This document shows positions 7,204 through 32,346 of a stretch of 61,395 nucleotides of DNA, piece after piece. A program made the translations under genes and the position numbers. The DNA is taken from the IMG/VR virus record IMGVR_UViG_3300020045_019627, positions 1 through 61,395 of that record; one strand, given 5' to 3'. The notes under the pieces were generated by a model, which saw nothing but the letters and a program-made list of their open reading frames with translations, was not told where the DNA came from and did not search any database. The stretch comes from a virus (taxonomy: Duplodnaviria; Caudoviricetes). How positions within the stretch are numbered: position 1 is the first letter of the stretch; every line of letters starts with the position of its first letter.

Positions 7204-7214
7204 AAAGCCGTGGT

Positions 7215-11995: not shown

Positions 11996-12258
11996 TGTTG
12001 TTCCGGCAGAGCTCTAATGCCAAAGTACGCGAAAGCAACAGCAAGACAAGCGAGAAGGAATCCCGGTAGGAAACTATCGACGACGATACAGCTCATTTTG
12101 TCACCGGTGCTAATGCTAGTGTTGTTGCAGTCAAGATGGTTAACGTCTCTTCCAATGCCAGTAACATCTTTTAATGGCTCAATAAGAACCACAGCGGTAA
12201 TGAATACTAGAAAAGCCATCATAATACCATACATGATAAGAGTACCTCGTCGATTCAT
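11992..12258 (-). CDS. Two-helix membrane protein with pilin-like leader; candidate second capsid protein
   Basis: MNRRG leader, two hydrophobic helices and a Cys pair in the loop. Confidence 0.55.
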   Translation of the reverse strand: MNRRGTLIMYGIMMAFLVFITAVVLIEPLKDVTGIGRDVNHLDCNNTSISTGDKMSCIVVDSFLPGFLLACLAVAFAYFGIRALPEQQ

Positions 12259-12596
12259 GGCGAGCCTCCACGACCAAAAAATCTTGTTTTTACTTCGCAT
12301 AAGGTCATTCGTTTAGGATTAATAATTGGTTCTGGTAGAGGGTATTCTTTTTTTCCAGGATTGAGTTGTTGCTTCAGACGTTTTTTAGAATACTTGTTTG
12401 TTCGTTGAAGAATCTTTTGAATTCTAATAACCGGTGTAAATCTCAGGTTATATCTTCTACCTGATAGTTTCTTTTGTTCTGCGTTTTTATTTAGTTCTTC
12501 TCTCAGTGCAAGTTTAATATTTTGTCTTTCTGCATCGCTTTGCGGTATTATCTTTTTCAATGCTGAGTAATAATCAGATTGTTTTTTTATCGCCAT
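12255..12596 (-). CDS. Basic hypothetical protein
   Basis: ORF track; K/R-rich. Confidence 0.65.
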   Translation of the reverse strand: MAIKKQSDYYSALKKIIPQSDAERQNIKLALREELNKNAEQKKLSGRRYNLRFTPVIRIQKILQRTNKYSKKRLKQQLNPGKKEYPLPEPIINPKRMTLCEVKTRFFGRGGSP

Positions 12597-15500
12597 AAAA
12601 ATCTCCCTCCTTTGTTCTTTGAAGCGGTTAGCTCTGTTCTCTCTGCGCGAGTAACCAAACGTTGTCCGCGACGCTGAATGAACTCATCCTTTAACGGTAT
12701 TCGCTTACCAGCCTGTATCTTATACGAGCGAAAAACTTTATCATTGATTCGCGCATCAATATCGCTAACAGTAGTCCTACCACTCGGCAAGAGCTTAAAT
12801 CTCGCGCCAAGACCGCCAAGCGCCGCTGTTTGACCAGCGAGGAGGGCGCGACCACGAGGAAGATTACTAGCGACTCGTAAGAACTTCTTACGACGCTTCA
12901 AGAAGACATCAAACCCTTCAGCATCTAATAATTTCCTTCTTTTTTGATCGATAGTGATACTATCTTGTGTCTGGGGTTTTTGAGTAATGCTGCGTTGTAA
13001 AATATATTGAATATTCTTCGTAGAAGTAATGCTGCGTTGTAAAATATTTTGAATATTCTTTTGAACACTCGATTGAATATTATTCTGAACATTTTGCTGA
13101 ATATTACTCTGAATGTTTTTTTGAATGTTAAATTGATTCTGCCGAGTAACACTACTACTATTCTGGACGCTTCTCATGCTCGTGCGCTGGTCATTAAGAA
13201 GGTTTGATTGTGGAACAAAAACATTCTTAGTACTAATAACATTATTAGTAGAATATTGTAACCCCGTTCTTGTAGCAAAAGATGGTTCCGTTCTTGTAGC
13301 AGAAGATGGTTCTTCAGCAAAGGAACGACCAGTATTAAAAAACGATGGATAATACCTTGTTACAGGAGTACGGAACGTTCTCACTCCAACAACAACCCTC
13401 TCGCCAGGCTTCACTGTAGTATACTCATAACCACTCAAATCAATATTAGGAGTCTGATCAGTAATAGACTTCTGACTCTGAAAAACTTGTCGGAGTCCAA
13501 CATTATCCTGAAACGCAGTACTACCACCGATTGGACTAGTAGGCTTCAGACTCTCCGATGTCTCTTTTCTAATCTGAGAACGCGGGGTCTGTTTTCGATT
13601 CTCTGCTTTTCTTGGCGACAAGAACTTTCTTTCAGATTTAATAATAAAATACTCTCTAGGAGCTCTCAAACTAAAGATAGGAGTCTTCTTCTTATTCTTT
13701 AATGTAAAGCTAATTAAATTCTTAGGCACTTTCACAGCAATAATATATTGCTTTGTAAGATCGCTAGTTCCTCCACCATACTTTGTTGTATCAATAATTT
13801 TCTTTGGTATTTTACCACTTGCATCAATAGAAGAAAGCTTAGTATCCCTAGGACGATAGATACCGGTAACAATACTACCACTGCCTTCTTTACTGAAAAC
13901 AAAACTCTTGACTGGTGTCTTTGATCGGTCAAGATTTTCTGTCACATCAGTAAATGTTTGTAAAGTCTTCTTATTGTACTGACGATTAGCAACGAGTGCT
14001 TTATTCATGTTGAATGATAATTCTTTTGACAAAAGAATATCTTTTTTTATTGGTGTGAATATGTCTAGCTCATAGCTTGGCTTGGTAATGGTTATATCAC
14101 TGAACGGTTTTTCTCCTCGGGGGAAGTCAAACTTTATTCTGCTTGCAGCACTGCGTATGACAAAGAGATCTTCAATCACCGGTTCGGGTATTCTCTTTGA
14201 TGGCTTCACCGGCTCAGTGGTTCTCACCAGACTCCGAAATGATACTGCGCGATCAGCACTTAGTGCACCATACTTCTCATCGGGAACACTCAACGATTTC
14301 TTGTTGCTTACAATAACACGCCCACGATTATCAACCACCGGATTATAATAATCATCAAGACCTTTAGCAATACTATCAGAAATAACATCTATCTTTACTA
14401 ACCTAACTTTTGTTTGAGAAGTTACTGGACTACCAAAGATTTTCTGTGGCTTACCAAACAATGTTTTTACATCATAAATCTTTTTCTCACTAATAATTCG
14501 CGGACTAGGTAATAGACCACCAAGCTCTCCATCAAGCTCTGGTACTTCACCATATCCCATACCAGTATTCTGAAACTGCTTTGTACCAGCACTACCGATA
14601 GTAAACTCTTGCGGGCCTAATGGATTAATTGTCTTAGCGTCTTCAGGTAACACTCTTGGGGTGAACTTGTCAAAGAACAACCCACCACTAATACCACGAG
14701 ATCCTATCTGTTCATTACGTTGAAAGAGATTATCAACAACGCTCTGTTGTGCACCAAGAAGATCTTGCTTTTTCAAGTATGCTGCGGGACTAAGTTCTTG
14801 TAATTTAACATTTCTATTTTGTTGTATAGGTTTGAAAAAAGGAAAAGTTGTTGGTGCACTAAGTCTTGGTATATCCGTAAATGGAAAACCGTACTGCGGT
14901 TGGGCACGACTCTGTGGCACACTCGTAACAACTTTGGTCTGTTGTGGTGTAAAGATCTTTTGATCTGGGGGGGTAAGGTAGAAATCTCTTGGTGCATTGA
15001 AAGGAGTGTACTTGGCATAATCTAGATTCTTGATGATCACTGTTGCAGGAGTAATACTTACTTGCTGTATTGTTCGCGGCGAAAGAAGATTGTACTCTGT
15101 TTTTCCTGGTTGCTTAAACAAGTTCCTCATTGTAACAACGGTTCCTATGCTACCTCCTCCTTCGGCTGGCTTCGCAACATCAACAATCTTACCAAAACCA
15201 CTACCAAACGGCTCGGCAATAGTGCTCTGACTATTAAGCTGTATATTCAAGAAGCTTGGTTCTGCACTCCGTTCCATTTCGTACCTCGCGCGATTACCAA
15301 TAAGAGGATATGGTTTTCCTTCTTTAGCAATAATACTTTCTTGAAACGTGGCAATACCACCACCACGAAGCTTTTGGACATTACCACCCTTCACAAAGAA
15401 TTCAAGAGCTCCATCAGCAGGGCTAAGATACTTACCAACAAGATCCATTTTAACACCAGCAAACTCTTGAGGAACAACCATCGTCTTGCCAGGCAATACT

Positions 15501-16888
15501 TTCCCAATCGCATAACCACCGATAAGCTTGCCTACACCGCGAGGGTTTTGCAATGCGTTTCCAATACCAGCAACAGTGCTTACTGTAAACTCAGGCAGGC
15601 TGGTACCCAAGTGTACTGTTCTCTCAAAATTCTCATTACTCTGTCCACGAAAGAGATTTTCTACTCTCGCAGCTCCTTCACCAATAAGTGCTTGACCGCC
15701 ACCAATACCAAGAACAGTTGTGTCACTAGCAAAGGACAGGATTCCAGCACCAACGTTTGCACCCAACGCAAGACCGGTCTCTACGGCTTTAGCATAGTTC
15801 TTATTAGAAAGATATGTCTTCTCCTCAAAAAGAAGTTGTTTGAAACTTTTATCCGGTAAACTAAATGCATAAGAATAAGAATCATTGGTTGTTTTTAATC
15901 CTTTTCCTATTCTTTCTCTGGCATCTTCGATAATTTTTTGTCCAAACGGTACGACGCTAACTTTTTTTGTATACCCAAAATTAGTAATAGACCTAATTCC
16001 ACTATCTTGCCCGAATTTTATGGCATCTTCGATAATTTTTTGTCCAAGCGGTCCGACGCTAACTTCTTTCGGTGACGTACCCAGAGTATACCCAAAGTTA
16101 TTAGTAGAACTAATCCCACTACCTTGCCCAAATCCCTTGGTGAATCCATCATTGAGCTGATATGGTCCCACTTCTTTATATGTTTTTGTTTCTGAAATAG
16201 ATAACGGAGTAGCAAGCCTCGGTAAGTATTCTCTGGGGGTGTTGCCGTATTGTCCTTTGACTGTTTTTATTCCTCCGCTTGCGGTTCCTACTCCTGATTG
16301 TACTAATACAAGACTTCCTTGTTGTATTCCTTGTTTGCTACCAGTAATGCTGGGATTGCCAGTATTGTAGATTCCTGATGGGGTGCTCGCTTGGTATACT
16401 CCTCTGTTGGAGTAATAGCCGACAGTTGGTCCACTTTTTGTTCCTGTGGTGGTAGTAATTCCTCCTCCGGTTAGGCTTGTTGGACTGGAGTATCTGATAC
16501 CAGCATCGGGGTTTGGTGGTGGACTACTCAGGTAGGTGCGGGAGTCTTTTGGTGCTGTTTGTTTCGCACTATCATATTGACTGCCTAGTCGTTGTTGTAT
16601 CTGGTCTAGTTCTCGTAGTTCACTATCAAGTTCTTGCTGTAATGTTGGAATGCTGGCGAGGTTCTTTCCTGTTTCTAGACGATAAGCGATCTTTGATTGT
16701 AATGCACCAATGTTTTTTTCTTTGATATTAATACCGCTGCCGATCTTGCGTAGTTCTTGTTGTCCGTAATTAATTGTTGGCGCACTCGGAGATGGTGCTG
16801 ATTGTCCGCTCATAGTAGTTGTGGTGAACATCTCCTTTAGTTGTTGTGGGTTCCGTTGAAGTAGACGTCGTTGTTGTTGTGTTACCAT
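12587..16888 (-). CDS. Very large (1433 aa) low-complexity basic protein of unknown function
   Basis: Long ORF; internal repeats, Q/N-rich tract and R/K-rich C-terminal domain. Confidence 0.85.
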   Translation of the reverse strand: MVTQQQRRLLQRNPQQLKEMFTTTTMSGQSAPSPSAPTINYGQQELRKIGSGINIKEKNIGALQSKIAYRLETGKNLASIPTLQQELDSELRELDQIQQRLGSQYDSAKQTAPKDSRTYLSSPPPNPDAGIRYSSPTSLTGGGITTTTGTKSGPTVGYYSNRGVYQASTPSGIYNTGNPSITGSKQGIQQGSLVLVQSGVGTASGGIKTVKGQYGNTPREYLPRLATPLSISETKTYKEVGPYQLNDGFTKGFGQGSGISSTNNFGYTLGTSPKEVSVGPLGQKIIEDAIKFGQDSGIRSITNFGYTKKVSVVPFGQKIIEDARERIGKGLKTTNDSYSYAFSLPDKSFKQLLFEEKTYLSNKNYAKAVETGLALGANVGAGILSFASDTTVLGIGGGQALIGEGAARVENLFRGQSNENFERTVHLGTSLPEFTVSTVAGIGNALQNPRGVGKLIGGYAIGKVLPGKTMVVPQEFAGVKMDLVGKYLSPADGALEFFVKGGNVQKLRGGGIATFQESIIAKEGKPYPLIGNRARYEMERSAEPSFLNIQLNSQSTIAEPFGSGFGKIVDVAKPAEGGGSIGTVVTMRNLFKQPGKTEYNLLSPRTIQQVSITPATVIIKNLDYAKYTPFNAPRDFYLTPPDQKIFTPQQTKVVTSVPQSRAQPQYGFPFTDIPRLSAPTTFPFFKPIQQNRNVKLQELSPAAYLKKQDLLGAQQSVVDNLFQRNEQIGSRGISGGLFFDKFTPRVLPEDAKTINPLGPQEFTIGSAGTKQFQNTGMGYGEVPELDGELGGLLPSPRIISEKKIYDVKTLFGKPQKIFGSPVTSQTKVRLVKIDVISDSIAKGLDDYYNPVVDNRGRVIVSNKKSLSVPDEKYGALSADRAVSFRSLVRTTEPVKPSKRIPEPVIEDLFVIRSAASRIKFDFPRGEKPFSDITITKPSYELDIFTPIKKDILLSKELSFNMNKALVANRQYNKKTLQTFTDVTENLDRSKTPVKSFVFSKEGSGSIVTGIYRPRDTKLSSIDASGKIPKKIIDTTKYGGGTSDLTKQYIIAVKVPKNLISFTLKNKKKTPIFSLRAPREYFIIKSERKFLSPRKAENRKQTPRSQIRKETSESLKPTSPIGGSTAFQDNVGLRQVFQSQKSITDQTPNIDLSGYEYTTVKPGERVVVGVRTFRTPVTRYYPSFFNTGRSFAEEPSSATRTEPSFATRTGLQYSTNNVISTKNVFVPQSNLLNDQRTSMRSVQNSSSVTRQNQFNIQKNIQSNIQQNVQNNIQSSVQKNIQNILQRSITSTKNIQYILQRSITQKPQTQDSITIDQKRRKLLDAEGFDVFLKRRKKFLRVASNLPRGRALLAGQTAALGGLGARFKLLPSGRTTVSDIDARINDKVFRSYKIQAGKRIPLKDEFIQRRGQRLVTRAERTELTASKNKGGRFLWR

Positions 16889-17016
16889 TGGAAATCAGAC
16901 TGTTTGATCGTCACGGTTTTCGGAGGGTTTTTTAAGAATGGCATGATCTTTTTTGAGAGGAGGATGCTGCATTGCCCGTTTTTTTTGTTGTAGAATACTT
17001 TAGTGGTGATGTTCAT
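16882..17016 (-). CDS. AbrB-like microprotein (44 aa)
   Basis: Hand-translated TKVFYNKKNGQCSILLSKK. Confidence 0.5.
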   Translation of the reverse strand: MNITTKVFYNKKNGQCSILLSKKIMPFLKNPPKTVTIKQSDFQW

Positions 17017-17082
17017 ACAGTTGTTAGCGCTGTCCTCGGGCGATCTTTTTACTGTAAAACCGATTATATAAAACTATGCTAT

Positions 17083-17331
17083 TCAGATATTAAACTTTTG
17101 CTGCAGAATAGCCAACGCCTGATCAAGATTCTCCCTGCTAGCACGAGGATTCTTCGTATACAACCCGCCCAATAACTTCATTATCTCATCAATACGCTTC
17201 GTATCATGCAACGGGACAACAATCTCAAAAACATAATCCCTACTAGAGTATTGTTCTAAAAAGATAATCTTTAAGAAACGACCCTGCCCAAGATGACGTT
17301 TCTTACGTTTCATACTCTCACCTAACCCCAA
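17083..17331 (-). CDS. Hypothetical protein
   Basis: ORF track; operon position. Confidence 0.6.
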   Translation of the reverse strand: MGLGESMKRKKRHLGQGRFLKIIFLEQYSSRDYVFEIVVPLHDTKRIDEIMKLLGGLYTKNPRASRENLDQALAILQQKFNI

Positions 17332-17900
17332 ATCCTACTAATCAAGTAGATAATAGCTCCTATCACCAACACCCAAATGATCCATGACATGCTCATCTTC
17401 TTTTTTATGCCATCCTTATCTAACTCTGCTTGTTCTATCTGACGAACAATAGTTAACTGTCCATGTTTGTGAATACCGGTTTGTTTTAATGCTTCTTCAC
17501 TTGTCTTACCACCAAGGATTAATGCTTCGTATTCTTCAGCGTCACCACCGCCAGGCAGTAATCGCCAACTGAATAATATGATAATAGGATAACGTTTCTT
17601 CTTTATCTTTAATTGAAAGATCGCCTTTTCTTCATAAGCATAAGCATCACGTTGTCCTGTCGTCTTAATCGTCTTGTCATCAATATACCATAGTCCACTA
17701 CGGGCAAAGGCAGTTTTGAATTCCGCGCTACGATTAGGACTGATCCATAATGCAATAACTTTGGAGGAGTCATTATCGACTATACGGAGTAGTTTTTTTG
17801 GTATACGAAACTTCCAGCCTATATTCTTTTTCTTATTAATCTGTTCTTCAATAGCGTGGATCTTCTTTTCGTTCTCTTCTACTTTGTCAACAATGCTCAT
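17322..17900 (-). CDS. C-terminally membrane-anchored protein
   Basis: C-terminal TM WIIWVLVIGAIIYLI. Confidence 0.8.
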   Translation of the reverse strand: MSIVDKVEENEKKIHAIEEQINKKKNIGWKFRIPKKLLRIVDNDSSKVIALWISPNRSAEFKTAFARSGLWYIDDKTIKTTGQRDAYAYEEKAIFQLKIKKKRYPIIILFSWRLLPGGGDAEEYEALILGGKTSEEALKQTGIHKHGQLTIVRQIEQAELDKDGIKKKMSMSWIIWVLVIGAIIYLISRIWG

Positions 17901-18109
17901 GGTGATCGCTCTCTGAAATTCTTGAATCTAATAATCATACTAACTATAACAGTAAAGAACCCGCAGAGCATTGAAAAGTAAAAGAATGCTCCTTGGGTTG
18001 TTGTCGCAACAGCAAAGTATCCCGCGCTAGCACCAAGAGGCACTAGAACTTCATATAGAACATCTCTCAGACTATCTTTCTTTCTTATTATCAAAGGTAA
18101 TTTTTTCAT
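17897..18109 (-). CDS. Two-TM membrane protein
   Basis: Hydrophobic helices; ATGA overlaps. Confidence 0.7.
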   Translation of the reverse strand: MKKLPLIIRKKDSLRDVLYEVLVPLGASAGYFAVATTTQGAFFYFSMLCGFFTVIVSMIIRFKNFRERSP

Positions 18110-18567
18110 GATTCCACTCCTCCTTCAGTAACCACTTTCTTTTCTCCACCGAAGAGTCCTCGCTCAGTGGTTTTTTTCTGTGGGAGAATAGTCCTATTTT
18201 CTCTTCGTACAGTGAATAGTATCTCCATAAGCTTTGCTTTCCTTCCCAGCCCTACGATAGCAACATTACCTACTTTGCCTTGTAAGTATTCGCTTACAAA
18301 GCTGTAGTTCTCCGCTTCCGCATAGTGCGCCACCTGTAAGTAAGTAAGTACCGGAGCTTTTGGTTTACCAACTTCCTCATCACGAAAGTTAGCAGTCTTA
18401 GAAAGCTTCTTAGCATTTTCTTGAGCAACAACATCACGAACGAACTGCAATAAGCTATCCTTATTCGGTGGCTCAGGATAGTTACCCATCTGTAACGCAT
18501 AATTCTGGGCCGTTGCCTGAATACGTTGGTCGATGTACTCATCAATCTCTGTTGTCTCGTCAACCAT
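18106..18567 (-). CDS. Hypothetical protein
   Basis: ORF track; operon position. Confidence 0.75.
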   Translation of the reverse strand: MVDETTEIDEYIDQRIQATAQNYALQMGNYPEPPNKDSLLQFVRDVVAQENAKKLSKTANFRDEEVGKPKAPVLTYLQVAHYAEAENYSFVSEYLQGKVGNVAIVGLGRKAKLMEILFTVRRENRTILPQKKTTERGLFGGEKKVVTEGGVES

Positions 18568-18573
18568 GATGTT

Positions 18574-18714
18574 TCACAATAAGTCTTTTAGTTGTTCCCA
18601 TAATTGCTTTAGGCTTATGCCTTTCACATGAGTATAGATAGTTATGCCTATAGCCGTAATGATTCCTATACTGAGAATATCCTGAAAGATATTGTCAAAG
18701 AGTAAGGTGGCCAT
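18574..18714 (-). CDS. Small membrane protein (46 aa)
   Basis: Hand-translated MATLLFDNIFQDILSIGIITAIGITIY; fills the operon gap. Confidence 0.6.
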   Translation of the reverse strand: MATLLFDNIFQDILSIGIITAIGITIYTHVKGISLKQLWEQLKDLL

Positions 18715-18715
18715 A

Positions 18716-19015
18716 CTACCATCGAGTATTCACGTGTTTTATTCCCTGGGTCATAAATAATGGATTAGACAAAAACTCTCTGATGATGTAACGCTCGATG
18801 AATTCTTTTGTATCTTTTTTATGAGGGCAAGTGTATAGTATTGCTTCTCGGAAGTTCTCCCATATCATTCGTTCTTGCGGAGTCTTTGCTTTCTTGATAA
18901 GAACTGTTATTGGAAGCATTTTATTATTTGTATTGTATGATGATATGTATACTTCGTGGTTTTCATCAACCTGTAGCTTCATCATACCTTTCTGTAGTTT
19001 AAAGGTGATAATCAT
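18716..19015 (-). CDS. Hypothetical protein
   Basis: ORF track. Confidence 0.65.
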   Translation of the reverse strand: MIITFKLQKGMMKLQVDENHEVYISSYNTNNKMLPITVLIKKAKTPQERMIWENFREAILYTCPHKKDTKEFIERYIIREFLSNPLFMTQGIKHVNTRW

Positions 19016-19173
19016 AAGAGTTTTCGCTTTAGTTCTTTAACGTCGTTGCGGAGTTCTGCCAGTACTTCCAAAAGGCTTGTTTCTTCGTCGGCATCGTTAA
19101 CGATGGTTTGTCGCCATGTTTCTGGTACTTGTGCTACTTTGAGTGTAGTGGTAGTTTCTTGTTCTTTTGCCAT
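19012..19173 (-). CDS. Small coiled-coil protein (53 aa), first gene of the element B structural operon
   Basis: Hand-translated; TTTAAATA box at 19199-19206 on minus strand. Confidence 0.65.
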   Translation of the reverse strand: MAKEQETTTTLKVAQVPETWRQTIVNDADEETSLLEVLAELRNDVKELKRKLL

Positions 19174-19223
19174 GTTAGTTCATTATTGTCACCACTAATA
19201 TTTAAAAGTTAAGAATTCAGGGG

Positions 19224-21458
19224 TTATTTTGTGAGACTGATGACTGTGTTGGTATTTAGTTGTAGTAATGCGGTACTCATTAGTTGTAAGTTAGTACTAA
19301 TCGTGTCGAGTATTGCTGGGGTGATTCCTGCGCTGGTGGTGTTGTAGGTGAATACGCTTGTGGTATTGGTGTTTTGTGTGGTAGTGTTCGCCCAGATATA
19401 CCATCGTATGGTGCTGTTAACGTTGCTTGTTACTACGATGCTGTAATTGCTCCAGTTAGCGCTATTAGTCATTGGGACAAAAGGGTATGCCGTATAGACG
19501 GGAGTGCTCGTGTTGCAGTTGCTCGTGTTAACAAAAGAGTACACAATACTAACATTAACGCTGTCAAGCCTCATAAGTCGTGTCGAGGTAGCAGCACTTG
19601 TTATATTAATCGTGAGATTGTTAGCAGTAGTATTAGTCCAATTAAGCCCCCATAGCTTATTAGAGAAATTAAATATCCGTGTCGGAATAGCAATATCCCC
19701 TGAGTTATTAACCGCACTCCATCGCGATCCATTCCATACTTGTATAAGAAACGCATTAGTACCTGTCGCGCTACTAGCACCCGCTTTGACAGTAATATTA
19801 ATACCAATAATAGTCGCTCCCGCAGGAATACCAAAACCGAAATTAGTAAAGTTCTGCCTGTTACCACCACCACCAGTAGCATTAATATTATCAGCAAAAT
19901 TAGCATTTTGTGGAGTCGTCCAGTTACCAGTCCAATTAGTAGCATTACGCTGAACGGTTGCTGACGTTACTACTTCAGTATAAGTAGCATTACAGAGATA
20001 AAAGATATACCCTGAGAGGTTACCAACACTACTATTGCTAACGTTCCAGTAAACACTATGAGTAATATTCGACCCAGCAAGAGTACTATTCGTTTGATTG
20101 AACCACCATAATGGAGTGGAGGTGCTGTCTGTTGGTGCTGCCCGTAAACTTGCTCCTCCCATAGCCCATACTTGCGACGCAGAAAGAGTATCATTACGTT
20201 TTACAGTGGCGGAACCGTTTTTGAAACCGCCAGACATTCTAATATCGCTTCCAGGATTTTCTTGATTACTAATATTCCATGTTGGATCAGTAGTGAGGGT
20301 AGCAGTAAAAGCAACAGTTGATTGTGCAGTAATGACAAGTTCATCAGTAGCACTCGGAATGGTAATAACAGGCGTTGTGTTCGTCGCTTGCAAACTGGTA
20401 TAATTGCTATGCGGTGCTGTTTGATTCACGCCGATTGCTGAGTAAGAGACTGCCGCCCAAGAACTACCAGCATTTGTATCAGTATAAACAATAGTCTGTG
20501 TTCCCGTAAGACCTGTTTTGTAAGCATAATAAAGGTAATCATCACCACCATTATTTTGGTCAAAAAGCTTAGTTGTTGCTCCTCCCTCATAGGTGACACT
20601 AGTAATTTCTCCACCGAACTTATCAATACCAATACTTGATAGGTAAGTATTATCAGTGCCAACAATGGTATGATCCCAGCTAAGAGTAGCGGCAGCGTCT
20701 GATGCGAAGCCGCCAACAGCGTCAAAGCTGCTGCTCCGATGATTCAGTACTGTTGTGTTAATATCATTGTGTTTTGTTCCTATTTCTGAGGAAGGAATCA
20801 TAATATGTGTATTATTTATTTTTAGAGTGATTGTGTTATTAATCACAATCAATGGCAATTTTTGAGGGTCACTTATGTTAAGATATACTCGGTGATTCTT
20901 ACTCTCAATGGAAAAACCATTCAATTGAGAAACCCCTTGTACTGGTGGTTTAGCGCTGGCATAAAAGTATGTATAATCCAATCCCTCTTCAGTGGCGATA
21001 ACGAGTTGCGTCTTATTCTCACGAGTAAGAAACCACGCATCACCAACACTGGGAAATCCTGAAGTGGTATTAATCTTCTGAACTCCCCCCACACCACCAA
21101 TAAAACTCGCTCCGGCAGCAGGACTCACACCTGTGTAATTTGTCGCATTAAATACTGCATCAGTCATAGTAACTGTTTGTATTGTCTTGTTTTCTAATAA
21201 CCATATCGCATAAGAAACAGTTGCATTGGTTAAGTTGCGTAAAGTAACGCGCCGTTCTGATATGCTGATATTATTACTCTCAAAACTCAAAATTGTTCTA
21301 TTATCTAAGAAATCTCCGGCCAAGAAATGTGTTCCTAAAGAAACCACTTGTTGTGAATCAATACCTTGCTGCAAATCATTTTCACTCATTGAACAAGCAA
21401 TCATGCTCATACATGCCACCATGATCCCTGCCAACATAATGATTTTTTTATTGTACAC
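19224..21458 (-). CDS. Secreted glycoprotein/adhesin spanning the A/B junction (element B C-terminal variant)
   Basis: Signal peptide, dense sequons, beta-rich; contains the 121-bp repeat. Confidence 0.75.
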   Translation of the reverse strand: MYNKKIIMLAGIMVACMSMIACSMSENDLQQGIDSQQVVSLGTHFLAGDFLDNRTILSFESNNISISERRVTLRNLTNATVSYAIWLLENKTIQTVTMTDAVFNATNYTGVSPAAGASFIGGVGGVQKINTTSGFPSVGDAWFLTRENKTQLVIATEEGLDYTYFYASAKPPVQGVSQLNGFSIESKNHRVYLNISDPQKLPLIVINNTITLKINNTHIMIPSSEIGTKHNDINTTVLNHRSSSFDAVGGFASDAAATLSWDHTIVGTDNTYLSSIGIDKFGGEITSVTYEGGATTKLFDQNNGGDDYLYYAYKTGLTGTQTIVYTDTNAGSSWAAVSYSAIGVNQTAPHSNYTSLQATNTTPVITIPSATDELVITAQSTVAFTATLTTDPTWNISNQENPGSDIRMSGGFKNGSATVKRNDTLSASQVWAMGGASLRAAPTDSTSTPLWWFNQTNSTLAGSNITHSVYWNVSNSSVGNLSGYIFYLCNATYTEVVTSATVQRNATNWTGNWTTPQNANFADNINATGGGGNRQNFTNFGFGIPAGATIIGINITVKAGASSATGTNAFLIQVWNGSRWSAVNNSGDIAIPTRIFNFSNKLWGLNWTNTTANNLTINITSAATSTRLMRLDSVNVSIVYSFVNTSNCNTSTPVYTAYPFVPMTNSANWSNYSIVVTSNVNSTIRWYIWANTTTQNTNTTSVFTYNTTSAGITPAILDTISTNLQLMSTALLQLNTNTVISLTK
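20218..20338 (+). repeat. 121-bp exact direct repeat, copy 1 (copy 2 at 61275-61395)
   Basis: Base-by-base identity from tttttgaaaccgccagac to gtaatgacaa; flanks 20044-20217 and 61100-61274 are homologous but diverged. Confidence 0.97.
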
Positions 21459-21482
21459 AATGAATCATTCCTCCAAATATTA

Positions 21483-24413
21483 TTATCCTGTTACGCAATT
21501 GGTTACCGCTGTATAAACTTGTCCTCCTGCTGTGATGCAGAGATATAATGATCCGCTGCCTGCTGGTAATCCTGTGAAGTTCACGTTACCACGTACTGTT
21601 AACGTGTGAGTTGGGGTACTCGTATTAATGCCGACGTACATGACAGGTTGTAGTAAGAGGTTATTTCCTACAACGCTAATATTCGCAGTATTATTAGTGC
21701 CGACACCAACGGTAAGATTAGCACTGATATTAACAATAGTACCGTAGTCTTGAACAACGCTAGTGTTAAGGTGCGTGGCATTATGCCATTTAACCATATA
21801 GTTTGGTAATCCACTACCAGTAATATTGGCGAGGTTACTGGTCCAATAACGATTAGTTCCCTCTGCTATTTGTGTCGTGGTGAGGTTTGTTGTTGCAGCA
21901 TTCAGTCTACTAATATTCGCAGTAGTAATATTTACTTGGTTAAATATTGCGTTAGAGAAGTTTCTAAGGATACTAGCATTTCCCACAGCATCACCGGCTC
22001 TTGTAGAAGTAAAGAACAGATTGCTGGTTTCGGTAAGCTGTGCTGTCGTGAGATTAGTTGTTCCAACGTTAAGTTGACTAATATTTGCAGTTGTAATATT
22101 CGCAGTAGTAACAATAATACTGGAATGATTACGGAGAATTGTACTATTGCCCACCGCATCACCAGCTCGTAAACTAGTGAAGTAAAGATTTATATTTTCA
22201 GTGATTTGCGCAGTGGTGAGATTGGTTGTTCCCACATTGAGCTGACTGATGTTTGCTGTCGTGATATTTGCACGATTGAAAATAACACTAGAGAAGTTTC
22301 TGATAATACTACTATTACCAACAGCATCGCCTGCACGCGTGCTAGTGAAGTAAAGATTGCTTGTCTCAGTGATTTGTCCTGTTGTAAGATTAGTGGTTCC
22401 GACATTGAGCTGACTAATATTCGCAGTTGTAATATTTACTTGGTTAAGGATAACATTCGAAAAGTTTCTAATAATAGTAGAGTTACCGACAGCATCACCA
22501 GCTCTTGTAGAAGTAAAGTAAAGATTAATACCTTCAATAATTTGCGTGGTAGTAAGATTAGTATTCCCGAAATTACCACTGGTAGCATTTACCGTACTAA
22601 AAACAGCATAGGTATTATTGCGAAGAACTGTGCTGTTACTGCTAACAAGTCCGGCAATGATGCTAGTATTACCCAGCCAAATACCTGTGGTACGGTTGAT
22701 ATACTCTAAGGTATTAGTAAGTAATGGATAGTAGTCGGTAAAGGTTGTACTGTTATAATAAGTTTGTGGGTTAGTGTTTCTTGGATAGTAAAGAGTATCA
22801 GTAAGTGTTTGATTGAACGATCCATTCTCTGTATTTGTGTCAATAGCATTAATTGTGATATTCATAATACCTGTGCTGTTCGTCACAATAATACTGCTAA
22901 TATTATTCCCTGCTAGTAAATTCACAATCGTTGCATTCGTGACGTTCTTCTGATATGAAGAATTACTCACCACCCAGAAGTCAAAGCTTCCCCCACCACC
23001 AACACCGCCAGTGGTATCTATTGCGTTGAACGTGCATGTTGTACCTGAACAGTTGATGCTCATATTATTACCCGCGCTCAGTGTGAACGCTCCAGAATCA
23101 GTCACAACCCCTGTAGTTGTACCATTTGTGAAATTCCAATCATAACTGCCCGCACCCGCATTATCATCTCCATCGCAAAGTGCTGCACTGCCAGTTATAG
23201 CAACGCAGTTCGCTTTCAGTACGAGTGCATTAAAAGTTCCCGTTACATTGATATCTCCACTAGCATTGTTAAATGGACTGGTGGTGTTAATCTTTGTCGC
23301 ATTAATTGAATCAATTCTTGCTTGAGCAGTAACGTTCGCAGAATGCAAATTACCAATAGATGTTTGTTGTGCAGAATCGTTATTAGTCAACGTTGTATTC
23401 ACACTCGCGATCCTAGCCTGCACAGTAACATTCGCCGCTTCAAGATTTCCTATAGCGGTTTGTTGTGCACTTGCATTAGTAAATAATGTTCCATTACTGG
23501 AAATGAGTCCATTAATTTGTGCTTGCTGATTCGACGCATTGGTGAAGAGAGTACTATTGCTTGAAAGAAGTCCTCCAAGAATGAGTGCTTGTGCGCTGTC
23601 ATTTGCAGTTAAAGATGTGTTTAAATCTGTAATTCTGGAATCTTCATCATATAATGAAATAGTTGTTTCATTTAGAGTGAGTGTTTGTCCATTATCAGTG
23701 AACCAAGAACTATTCTTGTTTAAATTCGTGCTATTAAGCAATCCAGTGACGTGATTCGCAAGATTCACTAATGCGGCAGTTAACGCTTGACCACTCAATG
23801 AAAGATATGTTACACCAACCAACGTGACGTTCGGTGCACCACCACTTAAACTTGAGAAATTCACATAATTCGGCCTATCGCTGCTCCAATTTGTTAAGCT
23901 ATTAACATAGCCGAATGTTGTATAGGTTGCATTTATTTTTGTTCCATTTATTGTAAGATTCGCGGAAGATCCATTGTTGACAATCACCCAATCATCCAAT
24001 GCTGAAATAGTATTTATTCCTCCACCGCCCCCTCCTGATGTTATCATGCATAAATTACTAGTCGCTCCCGTAATATTGCCACAATAAAGACTCGTTGCAT
24101 TAACGAGTTTTGATGAGTTGAATGATAGAAATATGTCTCCTGATGCACTTCCGTTGTAAATCCAGAAGTTATCTCCTTGTACTCCTGTGATATCTCCACT
24201 CCCAGAAGGAGTGCTGCAATTGAAAGATCCATTTCTCAGCATACCTGATACAAATGAACTACCCGCACAATTGCCCGCAACTGACCAATTAACAATAGTT
24301 TTATTCGGGGCGAGGTCTATATTTCCCGTTGGGCGAAATGGAACGTAGGCTGAGGAAAAGGAGACGAATAAGAGTGCAAAAATTATTGTTAAGAGTGTTG
24401 TTTTTCGAATCAT
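21483..24413 (-). CDS. Secreted fibre-like glycoprotein (976 aa)
   Basis: Signal peptide, coiled-coil repeats, 56-aa repeats with TTxQITExxNLYFTSxRA, C-terminal VGINTSTP fibre motif. Confidence 0.8.
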   Translation of the reverse strand: MIRKTTLLTIIFALLFVSFSSAYVPFRPTGNIDLAPNKTIVNWSVAGNCAGSSFVSGMLRNGSFNCSTPSGSGDITGVQGDNFWIYNGSASGDIFLSFNSSKLVNATSLYCGNITGATSNLCMITSGGGGGGINTISALDDWVIVNNGSSANLTINGTKINATYTTFGYVNSLTNWSSDRPNYVNFSSLSGGAPNVTLVGVTYLSLSGQALTAALVNLANHVTGLLNSTNLNKNSSWFTDNGQTLTLNETTISLYDEDSRITDLNTSLTANDSAQALILGGLLSSNSTLFTNASNQQAQINGLISSNGTLFTNASAQQTAIGNLEAANVTVQARIASVNTTLTNNDSAQQTSIGNLHSANVTAQARIDSINATKINTTSPFNNASGDINVTGTFNALVLKANCVAITGSAALCDGDDNAGAGSYDWNFTNGTTTGVVTDSGAFTLSAGNNMSINCSGTTCTFNAIDTTGGVGGGGSFDFWVVSNSSYQKNVTNATIVNLLAGNNISSIIVTNSTGIMNITINAIDTNTENGSFNQTLTDTLYYPRNTNPQTYYNSTTFTDYYPLLTNTLEYINRTTGIWLGNTSIIAGLVSSNSTVLRNNTYAVFSTVNATSGNFGNTNLTTTQIIEGINLYFTSTRAGDAVGNSTIIRNFSNVILNQVNITTANISQLNVGTTNLTTGQITETSNLYFTSTRAGDAVGNSSIIRNFSSVIFNRANITTANISQLNVGTTNLTTAQITENINLYFTSLRAGDAVGNSTILRNHSSIIVTTANITTANISQLNVGTTNLTTAQLTETSNLFFTSTRAGDAVGNASILRNFSNAIFNQVNITTANISRLNAATTNLTTTQIAEGTNRYWTSNLANITGSGLPNYMVKWHNATHLNTSVVQDYGTIVNISANLTVGVGTNNTANISVVGNNLLLQPVMYVGINTSTPTHTLTVRGNVNFTGLPAGSGSLYLCITAGGQVYTAVTNCVTG
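21830..22570 (-). repeat. Degenerate 168-bp (56-aa) tandem repeat, about 4.5 units
   Basis: NL(Y/F)FTS(T/L)RAGDAVGN recurs at 168-bp spacing. Confidence 0.9.
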
Positions 24414-24424
24414 ACACTGTTCCT

Positions 24425-24664
24425 CTACGAAAACTGTCTCTTTTTCGATTTTTTCAATTTAATTGGCTCAATGACTTTTTCTTCAATGACATTTGCTTGA
24501 ATGATTTGGCCAGGAATCTCAATCATTCTTTTAACAGGTGATTTCTTATACATCATCTCCCAAACTTTTGCTTGTGCTTCAGGAACTTCATCACCGATGT
24601 TATATGGGCCAATCTTTTCCACTGCGATGAATATTGACATGATTACATTCCTCCGAAAATACAT
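24425..24664 (-). CDS. Small head-module protein
   Basis: Downstream of MCP; YNIGDEVPE motif and basic tail. Confidence 0.6.
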   Translation of the reverse strand: MYFRRNVIMSIFIAVEKIGPYNIGDEVPEAQAKVWEMMYKKSPVKRMIEIPGQIIQANVIEEKVIEPIKLKKSKKRQFS

Positions 24665-24689
24665 AAAAAAATAAATAATATTTATTCAT

Positions 24690-24971
24690 TTAATTAATAT
24701 TTGCGAATCGCACCTGAATAGCATATTGGTGATTAGTTGTTCCACCTGCCGCATCAATAGTTAATACGCTACTTGAACTTGTGCAAGTAACACTATCTTC
24801 ACTCGTGACATCCCAGCATTTCGCATCAACGAGTGTTCTTCCTTGTGCGAGGCCAGATACATCCATAGTATCATTGCTATCCATTGATGATGGGGGAAGA
24901 ATAAGAACATCCTCCCATTCACCACTGAATCTTCGTCTTACTTTTGAACTTGCAACTGTAACTGCTGCCAT
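24690..24971 (-). CDS. Putative capsid decoration/cement protein
   Basis: Directly after MCP; GGAGG RBS; resembles the 33169-34186 trio. Confidence 0.6.
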   Translation of the reverse strand: MAAVTVASSKVRRRFSGEWEDVLILPPSSMDSNDTMDVSGLAQGRTLVDAKCWDVTSEDSVTCTSSSSVLTIDAAGGTTNHQYAIQVRFANIN

Positions 24972-25035
24972 AGGGTAATCCTCCTTTTTTTATCATTTGT
25001 GTATAATTAAATAAAATAAAAAAATAAAAAATAAT

Positions 25036-27057
25036 TTAACTCACTGTGTCAAGCATGTGAATCCTTCGTGGACGCTCATATACAACTGCCAGATAGATAC
25101 TGATATATGCTTCGTCTGCTGCGCCAACTTTTGCTAGACCAATGAGTTGTGGAGGTCTGCTGATAACTACGTAGTAGCTCTCAAAGTCAACAACAAATAC
25201 TGCATCTGTTTGTGCACTGCTGTCGACAATTACAAGCACTCCATCGTATCGGATTTCTCCATTAAAGCCGAGTTGTGCACTGTTGTTGAAATATCTTAAG
25301 TTAGTATCTTCTAATTCGAAAACAATATCTCGAACATTCGGATTCACAACGATTCTTAAGTTCTCCCTGAGTGCACCATCGACTTCAACTTTCTTCATTG
25401 CTCCTCTCAAAAGCAAAGTTGTAAGTGCTCCACCCACTGCGTTGTAGGTATCTGAAGCCGTATCGGGCGCAAGTCTATTTGCCGCACTCCTCGTCTTACC
25501 ATATAATGAAGTGTTTCCTGCAGTGTCTGCAACTGCTTCAAGCCCGATGATCTTTGTTCCTGAATCAACTTGCTCAGTAAACAAATCATTGTTGATGTCT
25601 CTCATCAGATCTTTCATTCTTGCCTGTGCCTCGTACATGAACAAATCACCAATCGTTCCTCGACTGTGAAACAAGACGTAATCGGTGACGCTGATGCCAA
25701 CACGGTATTCCTTGATGTCTGTTCGCAATTTGAGTTTATCAACAGGGCGTTTCACAACTGTGGTGTCGTCAGGGTCTACGGAAAGTGTGGTGCTTTGGTC
25801 TGTTTTGATTCTCCAACCATATGTTGCTCCCCCTTCCAAGTGATCTCGCTTTGGCATTGCTCCAAAGAGATTGGTTTGGTTGTTGAATGTATCAACAATA
25901 CCTGGCACAAATAAATCTGCAAACTCTACGATGCTTTCAGTGTATGCTCCTGCATTGGTTGATGTGTCCAACGTGTCTTTTGTTTGAAGTCCACCGACGA
26001 TGCGTAGCTTGTTGCCGTCGCATTTCATCTGCATAGTTGTATGCAGTGCAATGCCTGTGGTTCTCATTTTTTCATCAAGTTGTGGGTTCTCTGAGAAGAA
26101 TCTGCTTGCTGCCTCTTTGAATGACAAAACGTCATTTTTCTTGAGTGCGTCTTTCATCTCCTTCACAGAAAGCGATGCTGTTGTCGTTTCCATGTTTTGC
26201 TCCTCCTTAGTTTCTTTTAATACCTTACTTTTTATTTGTAATTGAGTTATTTTCTCATCAATAATACTTTTAAATTCTTTACTTTCAAATATCTCTTTGA
26301 AATTAAGTATTGGTTCTTCTTTCTTTTCCTTAGCCTCAATTGAAGGCATCACTGTTTCTGTAACTGCTGCAACTGCTTCTTGTGCCTCAGTTATATTAGT
26401 AGTTGAAACAGAAGTTGTTTCAATCAATACTTCTTTTTCTTCAGTCATTGTGTTCTCCTCCAATATTGCAGCCTCTATTTCTTTATAAATAACTGCGTGT
26501 GGGTTTGCGATCATTCTTGGTCTGGCAAAACCTAATCCGCCGAACTCGGTGAGTGTATCAATAAATCTATAATTTTGTCCATTGTATGACTTTTGACGAG
26601 AATGATTTTCATCAGTTCCGTATTCAATACTAAGTCCTGCTATTCCTCCTTGTTGGATACGATATTCTATTTCTTCAGGAGTCATTTTATCTTCTTTGTA
26701 AAACTTATTCACTTCAAATTCAACCTCTGCACCCCAATGACCATCAGGAAGTTGAACAACTTTCGCAGTTGGCAAAAGATATGCTGCTTCATCAAGTGTC
26801 GGATCTTTTTCGTGAATCCAATCGTGGAAGAGACTGATGCCACGATAGCTTCCTTGTTCTCCTCCAGCAACATTTTCTTTATTGATAAATGTGCAAATTT
26901 GTTCGATTGCTTGTTTACTCAGTATGTCTCCAACTCTATCAGGGTGTGTTGTTGCTGCAATGCCAACATAATGTCCATTTTCTTTCTTCTGGAGATTACA
27001 AATAGAAATGCGTTCTTTCAGTTCATTTTTATTAAGTATTTTTGACATAAGGATCAA
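25036..27057 (-). CDS. Fused prohead protease-scaffold-HK97-fold major capsid protein
   Basis: N-terminal DRVGDIL, SLFHD and GLSIEY protease motifs; acidic linker; C-terminal MCP-like domain; follows portal. Confidence 0.85.
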   Translation of the reverse strand: MILMSKILNKNELKERISICNLQKKENGHYVGIAATTHPDRVGDILSKQAIEQICTFINKENVAGGEQGSYRGISLFHDWIHEKDPTLDEAAYLLPTAKVVQLPDGHWGAEVEFEVNKFYKEDKMTPEEIEYRIQQGGIAGLSIEYGTDENHSRQKSYNGQNYRFIDTLTEFGGLGFARPRMIANPHAVIYKEIEAAILEENTMTEEKEVLIETTSVSTTNITEAQEAVAAVTETVMPSIEAKEKKEEPILNFKEIFESKEFKSIIDEKITQLQIKSKVLKETKEEQNMETTTASLSVKEMKDALKKNDVLSFKEAASRFFSENPQLDEKMRTTGIALHTTMQMKCDGNKLRIVGGLQTKDTLDTSTNAGAYTESIVEFADLFVPGIVDTFNNQTNLFGAMPKRDHLEGGATYGWRIKTDQSTTLSVDPDDTTVVKRPVDKLKLRTDIKEYRVGISVTDYVLFHSRGTIGDLFMYEAQARMKDLMRDINNDLFTEQVDSGTKIIGLEAVADTAGNTSLYGKTRSAANRLAPDTASDTYNAVGGALTTLLLRGAMKKVEVDGALRENLRIVVNPNVRDIVFELEDTNLRYFNNSAQLGFNGEIRYDGVLVIVDSSAQTDAVFVVDFESYYVVISRPPQLIGLAKVGAADEAYISIYLAVVYERPRRIHMLDTVS

Positions 27058-28526
27058 GGATTGTATAATGCTTCATTATTACCTTTTGAATTAGCAACAT
27101 TTCTTTTCGTGTTTGCTCTTGTTCGATTATCAGGTTCTTTCATCACTGATTGGTTATCGAGTCTGTTCTGCCCATTGGTGTTATTTTCTAAGTCAATTCC
27201 AATAGTCATATCTAGTTCTTCAACGTCTTCAGGAACGAATCCTAACAATTCTACTGTTTTGTCTGCTTTTAATTGTTTCCCTTGTTTTGCTAAGATTGTT
27301 TGGTATTTACTCACCGTATCTGCAATAGTATTCGCAGTTTGTGCTTCTCGCACTTCATCTTGCTTATACTTTCTACAGAATTTAATGTGCCAGCCCATCG
27401 GGCCGAACACTTGTCCATTAAGCAAATCTTCAATAGTGTCTTGGAAATCACTAATGCGATTCCAATATCCTGATTCACTCAATCCCCCACTATCTCCTTT
27501 CGTAGCACTGTTGCCAATGAGATATGGAATTCTACTCACAGGAATACCAAAGCTAAAAGCGAAATTACTGGTGATGTAGAGTGCAAGGTCTTTATATTCA
27601 AGATCTTTAGGCATTCCTTGAAGATCTTTCACATCAACTTCTCCTGTGAACACGAGACTGCCGTGACGATTTTCCACTGATTTATATTTGCGAAGCGTTT
27701 CAATGAGTAATTTATGATTCTTGCTTCTTGCAAGCTCTTTTGGCAAAATGAACATCTTATCAGGACTACCTCCATTTCGCATGAATGAAAGCATGTTCCC
27801 CTTCACAAGCCAAAGTAATGTCACTTCTGATGCAAGTGATTCAACGGGGCTAAATCCCTGCACCATGCCATTAATGGTCATGTAACGAAAATGAACAATC
27901 TCTTGTGTATCGAACTCAATTCTTCGACCATTGGAATTTTGCTCATAATACAGAATATCATATTCATCGTTAACAATAGTTACGGTGCTTGAAGCGATAT
28001 AATCTATTTTCTTAGTTCTTGTTTGAACTTCATCCTCTATCTTCTCTTTCATCTCTTGCATTTCTTTTGTACTAAGAAACGTCGCATATTTAGAGGTGAT
28101 TTCTTTAATCATCTTATCTTTTTGCTGTTTGTTGGCTTCAGGATTCCAGAGAAAACCATCGCCAGTGAGGAAACCATCGTGCAACCAAGAACGCACCACT
28201 TCTTTTCCTCGTTGTTGTCGCCAAAACCGTTCTGCTTGCAATCGTTTGTTGCGACCAAGTGGGGAACCATCAGTGGAAATCCACTCTGGCCGATCCCCAA
28301 GGATGTCTGTGATAGGTATTCCTAGTGTAGCAACAAGTTCAGGTGTTTGTTTAAACCATTGCCAGAATCTTCGATAATTTGTTCCGAAATTAGATGCTCT
28401 ACTTCCAGCCACTCCTATGGGAATTGCGTTGAAAAGAGGACGATGCTCACTCGTTTTGTTCGTCCTGCTCGTCATAAATTGTGTTATTTGGATGACCATG
28501 ATTTTCTCTACGTACTGCTGCGACAA
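27054..28526 (-). CDS. Portal protein
   Basis: EIVHFRY...GFSPVESL, FMRNGGSP, FGIPVSRI. Confidence 0.92.
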   Translation of the reverse strand: MSQQYVEKIMVIQITQFMTSRTNKTSEHRPLFNAIPIGVAGSRASNFGTNYRRFWQWFKQTPELVATLGIPITDILGDRPEWISTDGSPLGRNKRLQAERFWRQQRGKEVVRSWLHDGFLTGDGFLWNPEANKQQKDKMIKEITSKYATFLSTKEMQEMKEKIEDEVQTRTKKIDYIASSTVTIVNDEYDILYYEQNSNGRRIEFDTQEIVHFRYMTINGMVQGFSPVESLASEVTLLWLVKGNMLSFMRNGGSPDKMFILPKELARSKNHKLLIETLRKYKSVENRHGSLVFTGEVDVKDLQGMPKDLEYKDLALYITSNFAFSFGIPVSRIPYLIGNSATKGDSGGLSESGYWNRISDFQDTIEDLLNGQVFGPMGWHIKFCRKYKQDEVREAQTANTIADTVSKYQTILAKQGKQLKADKTVELLGFVPEDVEELDMTIGIDLENNTNGQNRLDNQSVMKEPDNRTRANTKRNVANSKGNNEALYNP

Positions 28527-28896
28527 ACCATGTGAAGTAATAACAAATAAGGAATGCAGTTAAACCATAACTGAAGAAGTTTCTATATGTTATGACGTAC
28601 CAAATCAACAATCCAGTCCATGAAATGTTGACGAGTTCCGACACTGCTTCTTTCAGTTTGGTTTTGATATTCCAAATTTCCACCACTTCACGAAGTCGCT
28701 GTTTCAACTTATAGGGAACGTTCTTTAAATACCTTCCTATTTTGTGCAATCTATAGGTTGTACTTTGCAAAGAGATTGATACCGTGACTCTTGATTTCTT
28801 CGATTGTTTTTTCAGCATAATTATCAAACTCTTCCATAAACATGATGATGTTGCCTGCAAGATCTTTGTGTTCAACCACTGATCGCAATTCAGCAA
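28447..28896 (-). CDS. Membrane protein between TerL and portal (true start probably downstream)
   Basis: Two hydrophobic segments; overlaps both neighbours. Confidence 0.5.
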   Translation of the reverse strand: MLNCDQWLNTKILQATSSCLWKSLIIMLKKQSKKSRVTVSISLQSTTYRLHKIGRYLKNVPYKLKQRLREVVEIWNIKTKLKEAVSELVNISWTGLLIWYVITYRNFFSYGLTAFLICYYFTWFVAAVRRENHGHPNNTIYDEQDEQNE

Positions 28897-29296: not shown

Positions 29297-29308
29297 AATT
29301 TTTCCCTC

Positions 29309-32176: not shown

Positions 32177-32178
32177 AG

Positions 32179-32346
32179 TTATTTCATCCTGACGCGGTGT
32201 AATACTTCTGATTTGATGAATTCGAGAATCGCTATCTCACAATATGCAGGTAATTTGTGCTTGCTAAGTGCCTTCTTCACATCTACTGTTGCGTTCTCCA
32301 TAATCTCAGTGTCAAGAACGTGGATGTTTTGTTGTCGTGCATTCAT
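32179..32346 (-). CDS. Hypothetical protein (55 aa)
   Basis: Hand-translated MNARQQNIHVLDTE...; ATGA overlap. Confidence 0.55.
   Translation of the reverse strand: MNARQQNIHVLDTEIMENATVDVKKALSKHKLPAYCEIAILEFIKSEVLHRVRMK

Follow-up and report, generated by a model that had tools for sequence, protein, structure and literature searches.

The window analysed here is the whole of virus record IMGVR_UViG_3300020045_019627 (Duplodnaviria; Caudoviricetes), a stretch of 61,395 nt that is classed as linear and rated 100% complete. It contains two forms of a gene for a putative modular adhesin. Form A (19224-21458, minus strand) is an open reading frame (ORF) of 744 aa with a GTG start. Form B (59771-61393, minus strand) has no start inside the record and is open at the record's end, where it reads as 540 aa; translation from its first in-frame ATG would yield 507 aa. 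Residues of these two translations are given below as A and B followed by their number.

The two forms are linked by an exact repeat, O, which occurs once inside form A and once at the end of the record (Table 1). The copies are offset by 41,057 nt and lie in the same frame, and the first mismatch between them is at 20217. Beyond O, the DNA identity of A and B declines from 90.0% (20158-20217) and 91.7% (20098-20157) through 75.0% (20038-20097) to 65.0% (19998-20037), and is about random from there on. An earlier note on this DNA had described one front half that continues either into a protein of 744 aa or into one of 914 aa. Its coordinates, frames and arithmetic are correct, 1241 nt of front and 1504 nt of back adding up to 915 codons with the frame kept, but the 914-aa form B is a virtual join: the printed record holds one N-terminal half only, breaks off 121 nt into O, and nowhere contains the junction of 20218 to 61274. 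That one front serves two backs is therefore a reading of the assembly graph.

At the protein level, BLASTP aligns A375-492 to B1-118 with 86% identity (102/118, E 9e-64) and A632-744 to B426-539 with 33% identity (40/122, E 2e-10), and finds no alignable sequence between these two regions. In terms of the modules described below, the first half of a predicted β-sandwich (S1) is ~80% identical between A and B, whereas the second half (S2) is 33% identical and thus no closer than S2 is to unrelated metagenomic proteins (42-50%). Since S1 is ~80% but S2 only 33% identical, and everything downstream is different, we place the boundary of the exchange at the end of the first half-sandwich. Judged from the sequences, the difference is not limited to the insert but takes in everything 3' of S1, from the insert through S2 and the tail to all genes downstream. 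The N-terminal part is kept over the 118 aa that are visible (86%; 121 nt exact), and beyond it similarity is 33% or absent. The end of the N-terminal module is present in both copies (A375-445 = B1-71), so that each real gene must carry a homologous module of this kind, which makes an unrelated N-terminus for either copy unlikely. A graded decay of identity away from an exact stretch is what one would expect where a conserved module has undergone gene conversion or homologous recombination.

Table 1. Features of the two adhesin forms and of the parts of the record around them.
Feature	Positions	Strand	Content or basis
Only printed copy of the 5' part	20339-21458	-	Leader at aa 4-22, hydrophobic and with a lipobox-like MIAC at its end; larger part of the N-terminal module (aa ~70-445)
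Shared stretch O, internal copy	20218-20338	-	Codons 375-415 of A, within the N-terminal module; 121 nt, 100% identical to 61275-61395
Shared stretch O, second copy	61275-61395	-	Final 121 nt of the record
Form A: end of N-terminal module and S1 (aa 446-495)	19974-20217	-	Similarity to B decays; model strands E12-17, E25-32, E42-50
Form A: insert, one predicted jelly roll like a carbohydrate-binding module (CBM; aa ~496-650)	19509-19973	-	Model residues 55-204, pLDDT (predicted local distance difference test) mostly 83-96
Form A: S2 (aa ~651-720), low-confidence tail, stop codon	19224-19508	-	BLASTP, model, fold search
Form B: end of N-terminal module and S1 (B aa 41-119)	61037-61274	-	DNA and BLASTP comparison, model, fold search
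Form B: insert (B aa ~120-440), two predicted CBM-like jelly rolls, tandem or nested	60074-61036	-	VIA-align on model
Form B: S2 (B aa ~441-515), tail, stop codon	59771-60073	-	BLASTP, fold search
Head and packaging arm adjoining the gene	21483-34186	-	976-aa repeat protein, major capsid protein (MCP) 25036-27057, portal 27054-28526, TerL 29309-30898, papain-like protease 31307-32176
Neck and tail arm after form B	49287-59774	-	77-aa and 471-aa structural proteins, Neck1-like 57031-57534, tape measure 54060-55346, 841-aa protein, tail protein 49287-50756
Putative element A, downstream of form A	1-19223	.	24 ORFs; 891-aa LamG protein, 1433-aa protein, P4/D5-type primase 5326-7203, small serine recombinase 1775-2266
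Repeat R, 146 nt exact, inverted	2517-2662 and 40654-40799	.	Whole 48-codon gene (2519-2665), identical on both sides; flanks unrelated

Neither form matched Pfam (E ≤ 0.01) or PHROG, and a PDB sequence search gave no match below E 0.27. An exhaustive HMMER search with A recovered 425 proteins at E ≤ 0.001, with 63 at E ≤ 1e-10 and 7 at E ≤ 1e-30, and the matches resolve four modules: an N-terminal module (~70-445), S1 (~446-495), the insert (~496-650) and S2 (~651-720). The N-terminal module (to ~445/450) is matched by many stand-alone proteins of ~400 aa from their residue ~3. Its residues 244-444 are also matched by proteins of ~220 aa, five of the six tested hitting the PHROG 'minor tail protein' families phrog_553 or phrog_2106, and in the ESM Atlas the structural look-alikes of these ~220-aa proteins fall into clusters that are 92-95% viral. 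We presume the N-terminal module, of ~375 aa, to be the anchor. The insert domain is likewise found outside this context, as stand-alone proteins of ~170 aa and in tandem arrays.

The architecture of the family was counted over the 150 best remote homologues, 20 of which contain S1 or S2. The two half-sandwiches are adjacent in 17 units (11 proteins) and split by 152-335 aa in 13 units (11 proteins, the window's own included). Insert sizes fall into two classes of 152-191 aa and 294-335 aa; A (152 aa) belongs to the first and B (~320 aa) to the second. Residues B298-522 are similar to P0095, P0084 and P0064. In two homologues (P0006 and P0110), the N-terminal module and the sandwich have been combined independently, in one case with an insert and in the other without, and no Pfam model covers the sandwich in the relatives P0006, P0011, P0015 and P0033. 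The protein belongs to uncharacterised families, and in its family one and the same loop of the sandwich holds no jelly-roll insert, one or two.

For the folds we relied on AlphaFold models of A residues 440-744 (pLDDT 79.5) and B residues 60-540 (pLDDT 65.7), which were compared with 48,161 PDB chains using VIA-align. In the A model, residues 8 to 272 without 55-204 align to FN3 domains (Z 9-10, ~88-106 residues aligned, root-mean-square deviation (rmsd) 2.3-3.4), whereas the skipped residues 55-204 align to CBM6/32/36, galactose-binding-like and rhamnosidase β-sandwich domains (Z 10-11.4, 113-125 aligned, rmsd 2.8-3.3). Three model strands precede the insert and four follow it, which would place the insert in the loop after the third sandwich strand. 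The sandwich of the B model (residues 14 to 450) is also FN3-like (Z 8-9.3), and its insert resolves into two predicted jelly rolls (residues 61 to 383, 122 aligned, Z 10.7-10.8; residues 97 to 255, 128 aligned, Z 9.3). The models thus support a domain insertion, with one CBM-like jelly roll (A) or two (B) interrupting an FN3-like sandwich. Sequence models of Pfam fn3 matched neither A nor B, and no curated CBM family was found by sequence (Pfam, E ≤ 0.01). Foldseek comparison of the whole two-domain A model with the PDB gave low TM-scores only, the domain-level reading coming from VIA-align; against predicted viral structures the same model had 59 matches at E ≤ 0.001, which include tail-fibre, minor-tail and many unnamed Caudovirales proteins. 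We presume the jelly rolls to be glycan-binding heads.

These results bear on the proposal of a swappable receptor-binding domain, with unrelated inserts, in a conserved β-sandwich scaffold. Structure prediction of both variants, which had been suggested as a check, indeed returns a sandwich enclosing one or more jelly rolls in each, and both models and homologues agree with a binding-type domain inserted in a β-sandwich. An exchange of the insert alone within a conserved scaffold is not supported, S2 being only 33% identical. BLAST detects no relationship between the inserts, yet the models assign them to one fold class. A profile of the A insert built from 68 sequences gave a weak match to B190-326 (5.2 bits), which is too weak for us to claim homology.

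The gene sits among morphogenesis genes, between the genes for the MCP and the 976-aa protein on one side and, in form B, neck and tail genes on the other. Joining 61274 to 20218 produces a circle of 41,057 nt with the canonical two-arm layout of a tailed virus, which holds TerL, portal, MCP, Neck1-like protein, tape measure (phrog_58, E 2.6e-16), tail protein and helicase; genes 34852-48232 on the plus strand are early or replication genes, including a helicase-like ATPase and a serine recombinase. Closed in this way, as the exact overlap suggests, the circle would represent a complete tailed virus. The sequence on the other side of form A has a different character. Membrane-like segments occur in 13 of its 24 ORFs, compared to 6 of 26 in the head and tail arms; the 891-aa LamG protein has a leader and C-terminal membrane segments, and the 1433-aa protein is basic. 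For the large ORFs of bases 1-19223, Pfam and PHROG yielded no head, neck or tail family at E ≤ 0.01, and the sole match of eight small ORFs on this side was to the Ig-like phrog_807 (E 1.8e-4). In tetranucleotide composition, the head arm is most similar to the tail arm (correlation 0.964), followed by the early arm (0.931) and the A side (0.893). Both sides carry a resolvase-type serine recombinase (PF00239, E 7e-27 and 2.4e-33). In sum, bases 1-20217 look like a second, membrane-protein-rich element.

Several further observations concern the genes of the two arms. Inside the 976-aa gene beside the adhesin there are four tandem copies of a 168-nt (56-aa) period with 63-72% identity (21838-22575), and the head arm starts with three tandem paralogous genes of 105-115 aa (33169-34186; 38-46% aa identity). 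The MCP ORF (25036-27057) encodes 673 aa, of which only residues 428-666 match SU10_MCP; for the ~400 N-terminal residues, a fused scaffold or protease is conceivable. A papain-family cysteine protease (31307-32176; PF00112, E 8.2e-16) is encoded upstream of the terminase. The region of the tape-measure and 841-aa genes (50001-56000) has a G+C content of 0.344-0.355, compared to ~0.40 elsewhere.

In a comparison of the window with itself (k = 25), there are four exact repeats of at least 25 nt in all: the 121-nt O, inverted repeats of 146 nt (R) and 49 nt, and one of 27 nt. Beside R lies a gene pair with 65% aa identity (3974-4210 and 39668-39910), and the two small serine recombinases (1775-2266 and 42027-42551) are 30% identical to each other. 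The R gene, this pair and the recombinases form the mosaic expected of two elements recombining in one host. Written as a graph, the record has the order a-R-b-O-c-R'-d-O, in which O-c-R'-d is a circle. The assembler crossed the 146-nt repeat R twice, yet halted 121 nt into O. That the longer repeat was bridged and the walk stopped in the shorter one hints that the sequences stay identical well past O, or that the walk had come full circle. Circular contigs in de Bruijn assemblies typically show an exact terminal overlap of about the assembler's largest k. The exact overlap at the contig end is of this kind here; it differs in that the overlap is with an internal site, so that the circle is left with a 20-kb 'stick', the A side. 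The record is probably two replicons in one contig, and its label as a 100% complete, linear genome of 61 kb should not be taken at face value.

A further feature of the adhesin and its neighbours is an excess of N-X-S/T sequons. Form A has 48, where 18.6 are expected from shuffled sequences (z 8.7). The excess is similar in form B (z 6.7), the 976-aa protein (10.0), the 841-aa protein (9.6) and the 891-aa A-side protein (7.0), so that the five proteins (19224-21458, 59771-61393, 21483-24413, 50763-53288 and 8961-11636) hold sequons at 2.3-2.7 times the shuffled expectation; the same shuffling test showed no excess in MCP, portal, TerL and tape measure. Hydrophobic leaders start A and the 976-, 841- and 891-aa proteins, whereas the N-terminus of B (540 aa) falls outside the record. 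Both properties extend to the family: a sequon z of at least 3 was found in 17 of 20 sandwich-bearing homologues, as against 9 of 130 others, and an N-terminal hydrophobic segment in 15/20, as against 37/130. Together, sequons and leaders suggest exported, N-glycosylated proteins, and this signature would point to an archaeal host. In the tail arm, the 841-aa protein has 18 cysteines, and a 126-aa protein (53285-53665) shows, in its translation, a lipoprotein-like leader (...LLSAC).

Other clues to the host are mixed. The best match of TerL among isolates is an archaeal tailed virus (22.6% identity), the portal matches are all to bacterial phages (24-28%), and the MCP had no match. The primase is of a generic P4 type with 21-34% identity to archaeal and bacterial plasmids and phages, the ESM Atlas held nothing usable for the 1433-aa protein, and there are no tRNA genes in the window. 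A homology search with A in 5.8 billion clustered proteins returned only the window's own protein, and one with B residues 100-540 returned nothing among proteins of 297-945 aa. Viral contigs held no locus related to the portal protein, and genome contigs searched with TerL and with a five-sequence alignment of the insert region gave no match. An exact 119-nt stretch of O was absent from viral and metagenome contigs, in scans that may leave out the window's own record. Relatives of the 471-aa protein at 29 loci were not used, as they have only a motif of ~30-100 aa in common.

A parallel is provided by two contigs of an independent tailed-virus pair (L032 and L033). Their adhesin-family gene with sandwich plus insert (P0011; L032:9983-12868 and L033:9983-11992, the latter contig ending inside the gene) is 94% identical over 162 aa and then unrelated. 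In DNA this part is 89.7% identical, compared to 69-82% for the five longest alignable segments of packaging and head genes. The L032 gene has a repeat-rich neighbour, and both are flanked by the genes for the portal and a minor head protein; an HNH endonuclease gene follows directly. By these alignments, the two contigs repeat the pattern of a constant front and a variable back.

The explanation we favour, with a probability of roughly 0.55, is that the gene encodes a modular tailed-virus adhesin, which trades its binding half with a related gene of a co-resident element through homologous recombination, and that the record walks through both replicons. The record would then be a 'tadpole' walk through an assembly graph holding two co-occurring replicons rather than one plain linear genome. 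Bases 20218-61274 would close via the exact 121-nt overlap into the 41,057-nt circle, on which the gene would read from 21458 to 20218 and then from 61274 to 59771, giving form B. Bases 1-20217 would be a second mobile element with its own primase, serine recombinase and different composition, which has its own member of the gene family and joins the virus within O, yielding the printed 744-aa form A. The protein would be ordered as a hydrophobic leader, an anchor module of ~375 aa and an FN3-like sandwich with one (A) or two (B) jelly rolls. The two forms would have arisen by homologous recombination within the conserved N-terminal module, with all sequence 3' of S1 as the exchanged unit.

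A number of observations weigh against this explanation. In the record as printed, it is form A and not form B that follows the N-terminal half. A leader and a sequon excess fit an exported glycoprotein and sit badly with a virion part that is assembled in the cytoplasm. The link to minor tail proteins is transitive, through the ~220-aa homologues, the protein itself being without a Pfam or PHROG hit. The B model is of low confidence (pLDDT 65.7), with residues 78-115 and 204-225 below 50. The tetranucleotide contrast could partly reflect protein composition, and windows 17501-25000, which include the first head-arm genes, group with the A side on the first tetranucleotide axis. Finally, searches found no locus related to A in viral contigs, nor one related to the A/B alignment in metagenome contigs.

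Among the alternatives, the one we take most seriously, while still considering it unlikely, is that the record is part of a single molecule of at least 61 kb, a cointegrate formed by a single crossover between two adhesin genes. Both hybrids would then be real, and the N-terminal half of B would lie just past the record's end. The record is indeed one contig rated as complete, and a single crossover would leave the 41-kb virus part between direct copies of O, which is the arrangement seen; the resolvase-type recombinases on both elements would fit as well, and the common, identical 146-nt gene shows recent exchange. Yet the record stops exactly in the repeat, and its start has no repeat of at least 25 nt elsewhere, so that part of the molecule would be missing. 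A genome with one head set, two replication sets and 20 kb of membrane-protein genes would also make an odd virus, and composition differs between the parts.

Our favoured explanation of an exchange between two replicons could be taken further, although we regard the following version as rather improbable. In it, a tailed virus would share its host, probably an archaeon, with a non-tailed element that is rich in membrane proteins and resembles a plasmid or a pleomorphic virus. The two would trade the binding half of an exported, N-glycosylated adhesin by homologous recombination in the shared N-terminal module, and the shared gene would also let the replicons fuse into cointegrates. If this were true, a common stock of parts for host recognition would serve two different kinds of mobile element, and the morphogenesis modules of a tailed virus would encode secreted glycoproteins.

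An exact k-mer shared by two genomes can be enough for a de Bruijn assembler to pass from one to the other. The 744-aa ORF might accordingly be an artefact, a chimeric join through a short shared patch between genes whose true N-termini are clearly different. The known identity spans only 121 nt, and no other record among the viral and metagenome contigs searched holds O. We nevertheless consider a chimera improbable: similarity runs past the patch at 90-92% for 120 nt, into the final part of a domain that neither copy can lack; an exact run of 121 nt is very unlikely at a background of ~91% (0.91^121 ~ 1e-5); and the longer 146-nt repeat was resolved.

The reading of the earlier note, one virus population with two alleles at this locus behind the same N-terminal half and head genes, accounts for the exact in-frame overlap and agrees with the constant N-terminal and variable C-terminal parts of the family. 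It appears quite improbable to us, as the A path runs for 19 kb without a recognisable neck, tube or tape-measure gene, so that the head arm and the A side together would amount to a head-gene set without a tail, and as the compositions contrast.

It is highly improbable that the C-terminal half is switched inside a single genome by a programmed mechanism such as an invertase shufflon, phase variation or a diversity-generating retroelement. Two small serine recombinases and an exact 146-nt inverted repeat are present, but the two copies have the same orientation at a distance of 41,057 nt, the inverted repeat encloses 38 kb with the whole A gene, and the recombinase genes are ~17 kb from either copy, a geometry that largely rules out an invertase, while a retroelement was rejected because the mismatches are not adenine-specific (A in 6/40 in copy A and 12/40 in copy B) and the 17 ORFs of at least 250 aa scanned with Pfam, which did not include an antisense 265-aa ORF within the 1433-aa gene, contain no reverse transcriptase.

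The comparison with systems that do switch leads to the same distinction. In Mu (G/Gin), P1 (C/Cin) and phiCh1 (int1), alternative tail-fibre parts are inverted beside a recombinase gene and are switched by this inversion. A published table lists phiCh1, an archaeal tailed virus, with its tail-fibre protein and mannose binding. As in these viruses, a constant 5' part of an adhesin gene is combined here with alternative 3' parts, on an element with a site-specific recombinase gene. The two copies, however, point the same way with 41 kb between them, the recombinase genes (1775-2266 and 42027-42551) are distant from both, and we found no inverted alternative segments bounded by inverted repeats in the window, its sole long inverted repeat (146 nt) flanking 38 kb.

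Two systems described in PMC6669499 come closer in architecture. The neck passage structure (NPS) proteins of lactococcal 936-group siphophages have ~500-900 residues, of which the first ~180 hardly differ between phages, and the rest terminates in one of several alternative CBMs. Like these, our protein has a constant N-terminal part followed by alternative CBM-like parts, and its gene likewise lies between head and neck genes. It differs in that no sequence similarity to NPS proteins was found, that its predicted CBM-like domains lie inside an FN3-like sandwich and not at the tip of a fibre, and that it has a hydrophobic leader, an excess of sequons and variants on apparently two replicons. 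In the 'evolved' Dit (distal tail protein) of the same paper (PMC6669499), a BppA-type CBM is inserted in a β-sandwich arm of the phage adhesion device. The shared feature is a CBM, here a predicted CBM-like domain, in a loop of a β-sandwich, with members that have the insert and members that do not (here 13 interrupted and 17 contiguous units). However, the domain that takes up the insert in our protein resembles FN3 in the fold search, no Dit ring domain was recognised, and the gene precedes the neck genes instead of following the tape measure. No PHROG or Pfam match to Dit was obtained, and fold searches listed FN3 and not galectin for the host domain, although unlisted folds may still fit.

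A constant anchor with exchangeable sugar-binding heads is a standard route by which tailed viruses change hosts, and the principle is not new. The new details are the family itself, its series of zero, one or two inserts and its signature of secretion and glycosylation. The sandwich with its variable inserts offers a compact natural example of domain insertion for the diversification of adhesins. The presence of the second form on an apparently different kind of mobile element hints that parts for host recognition may be exchanged across elements.

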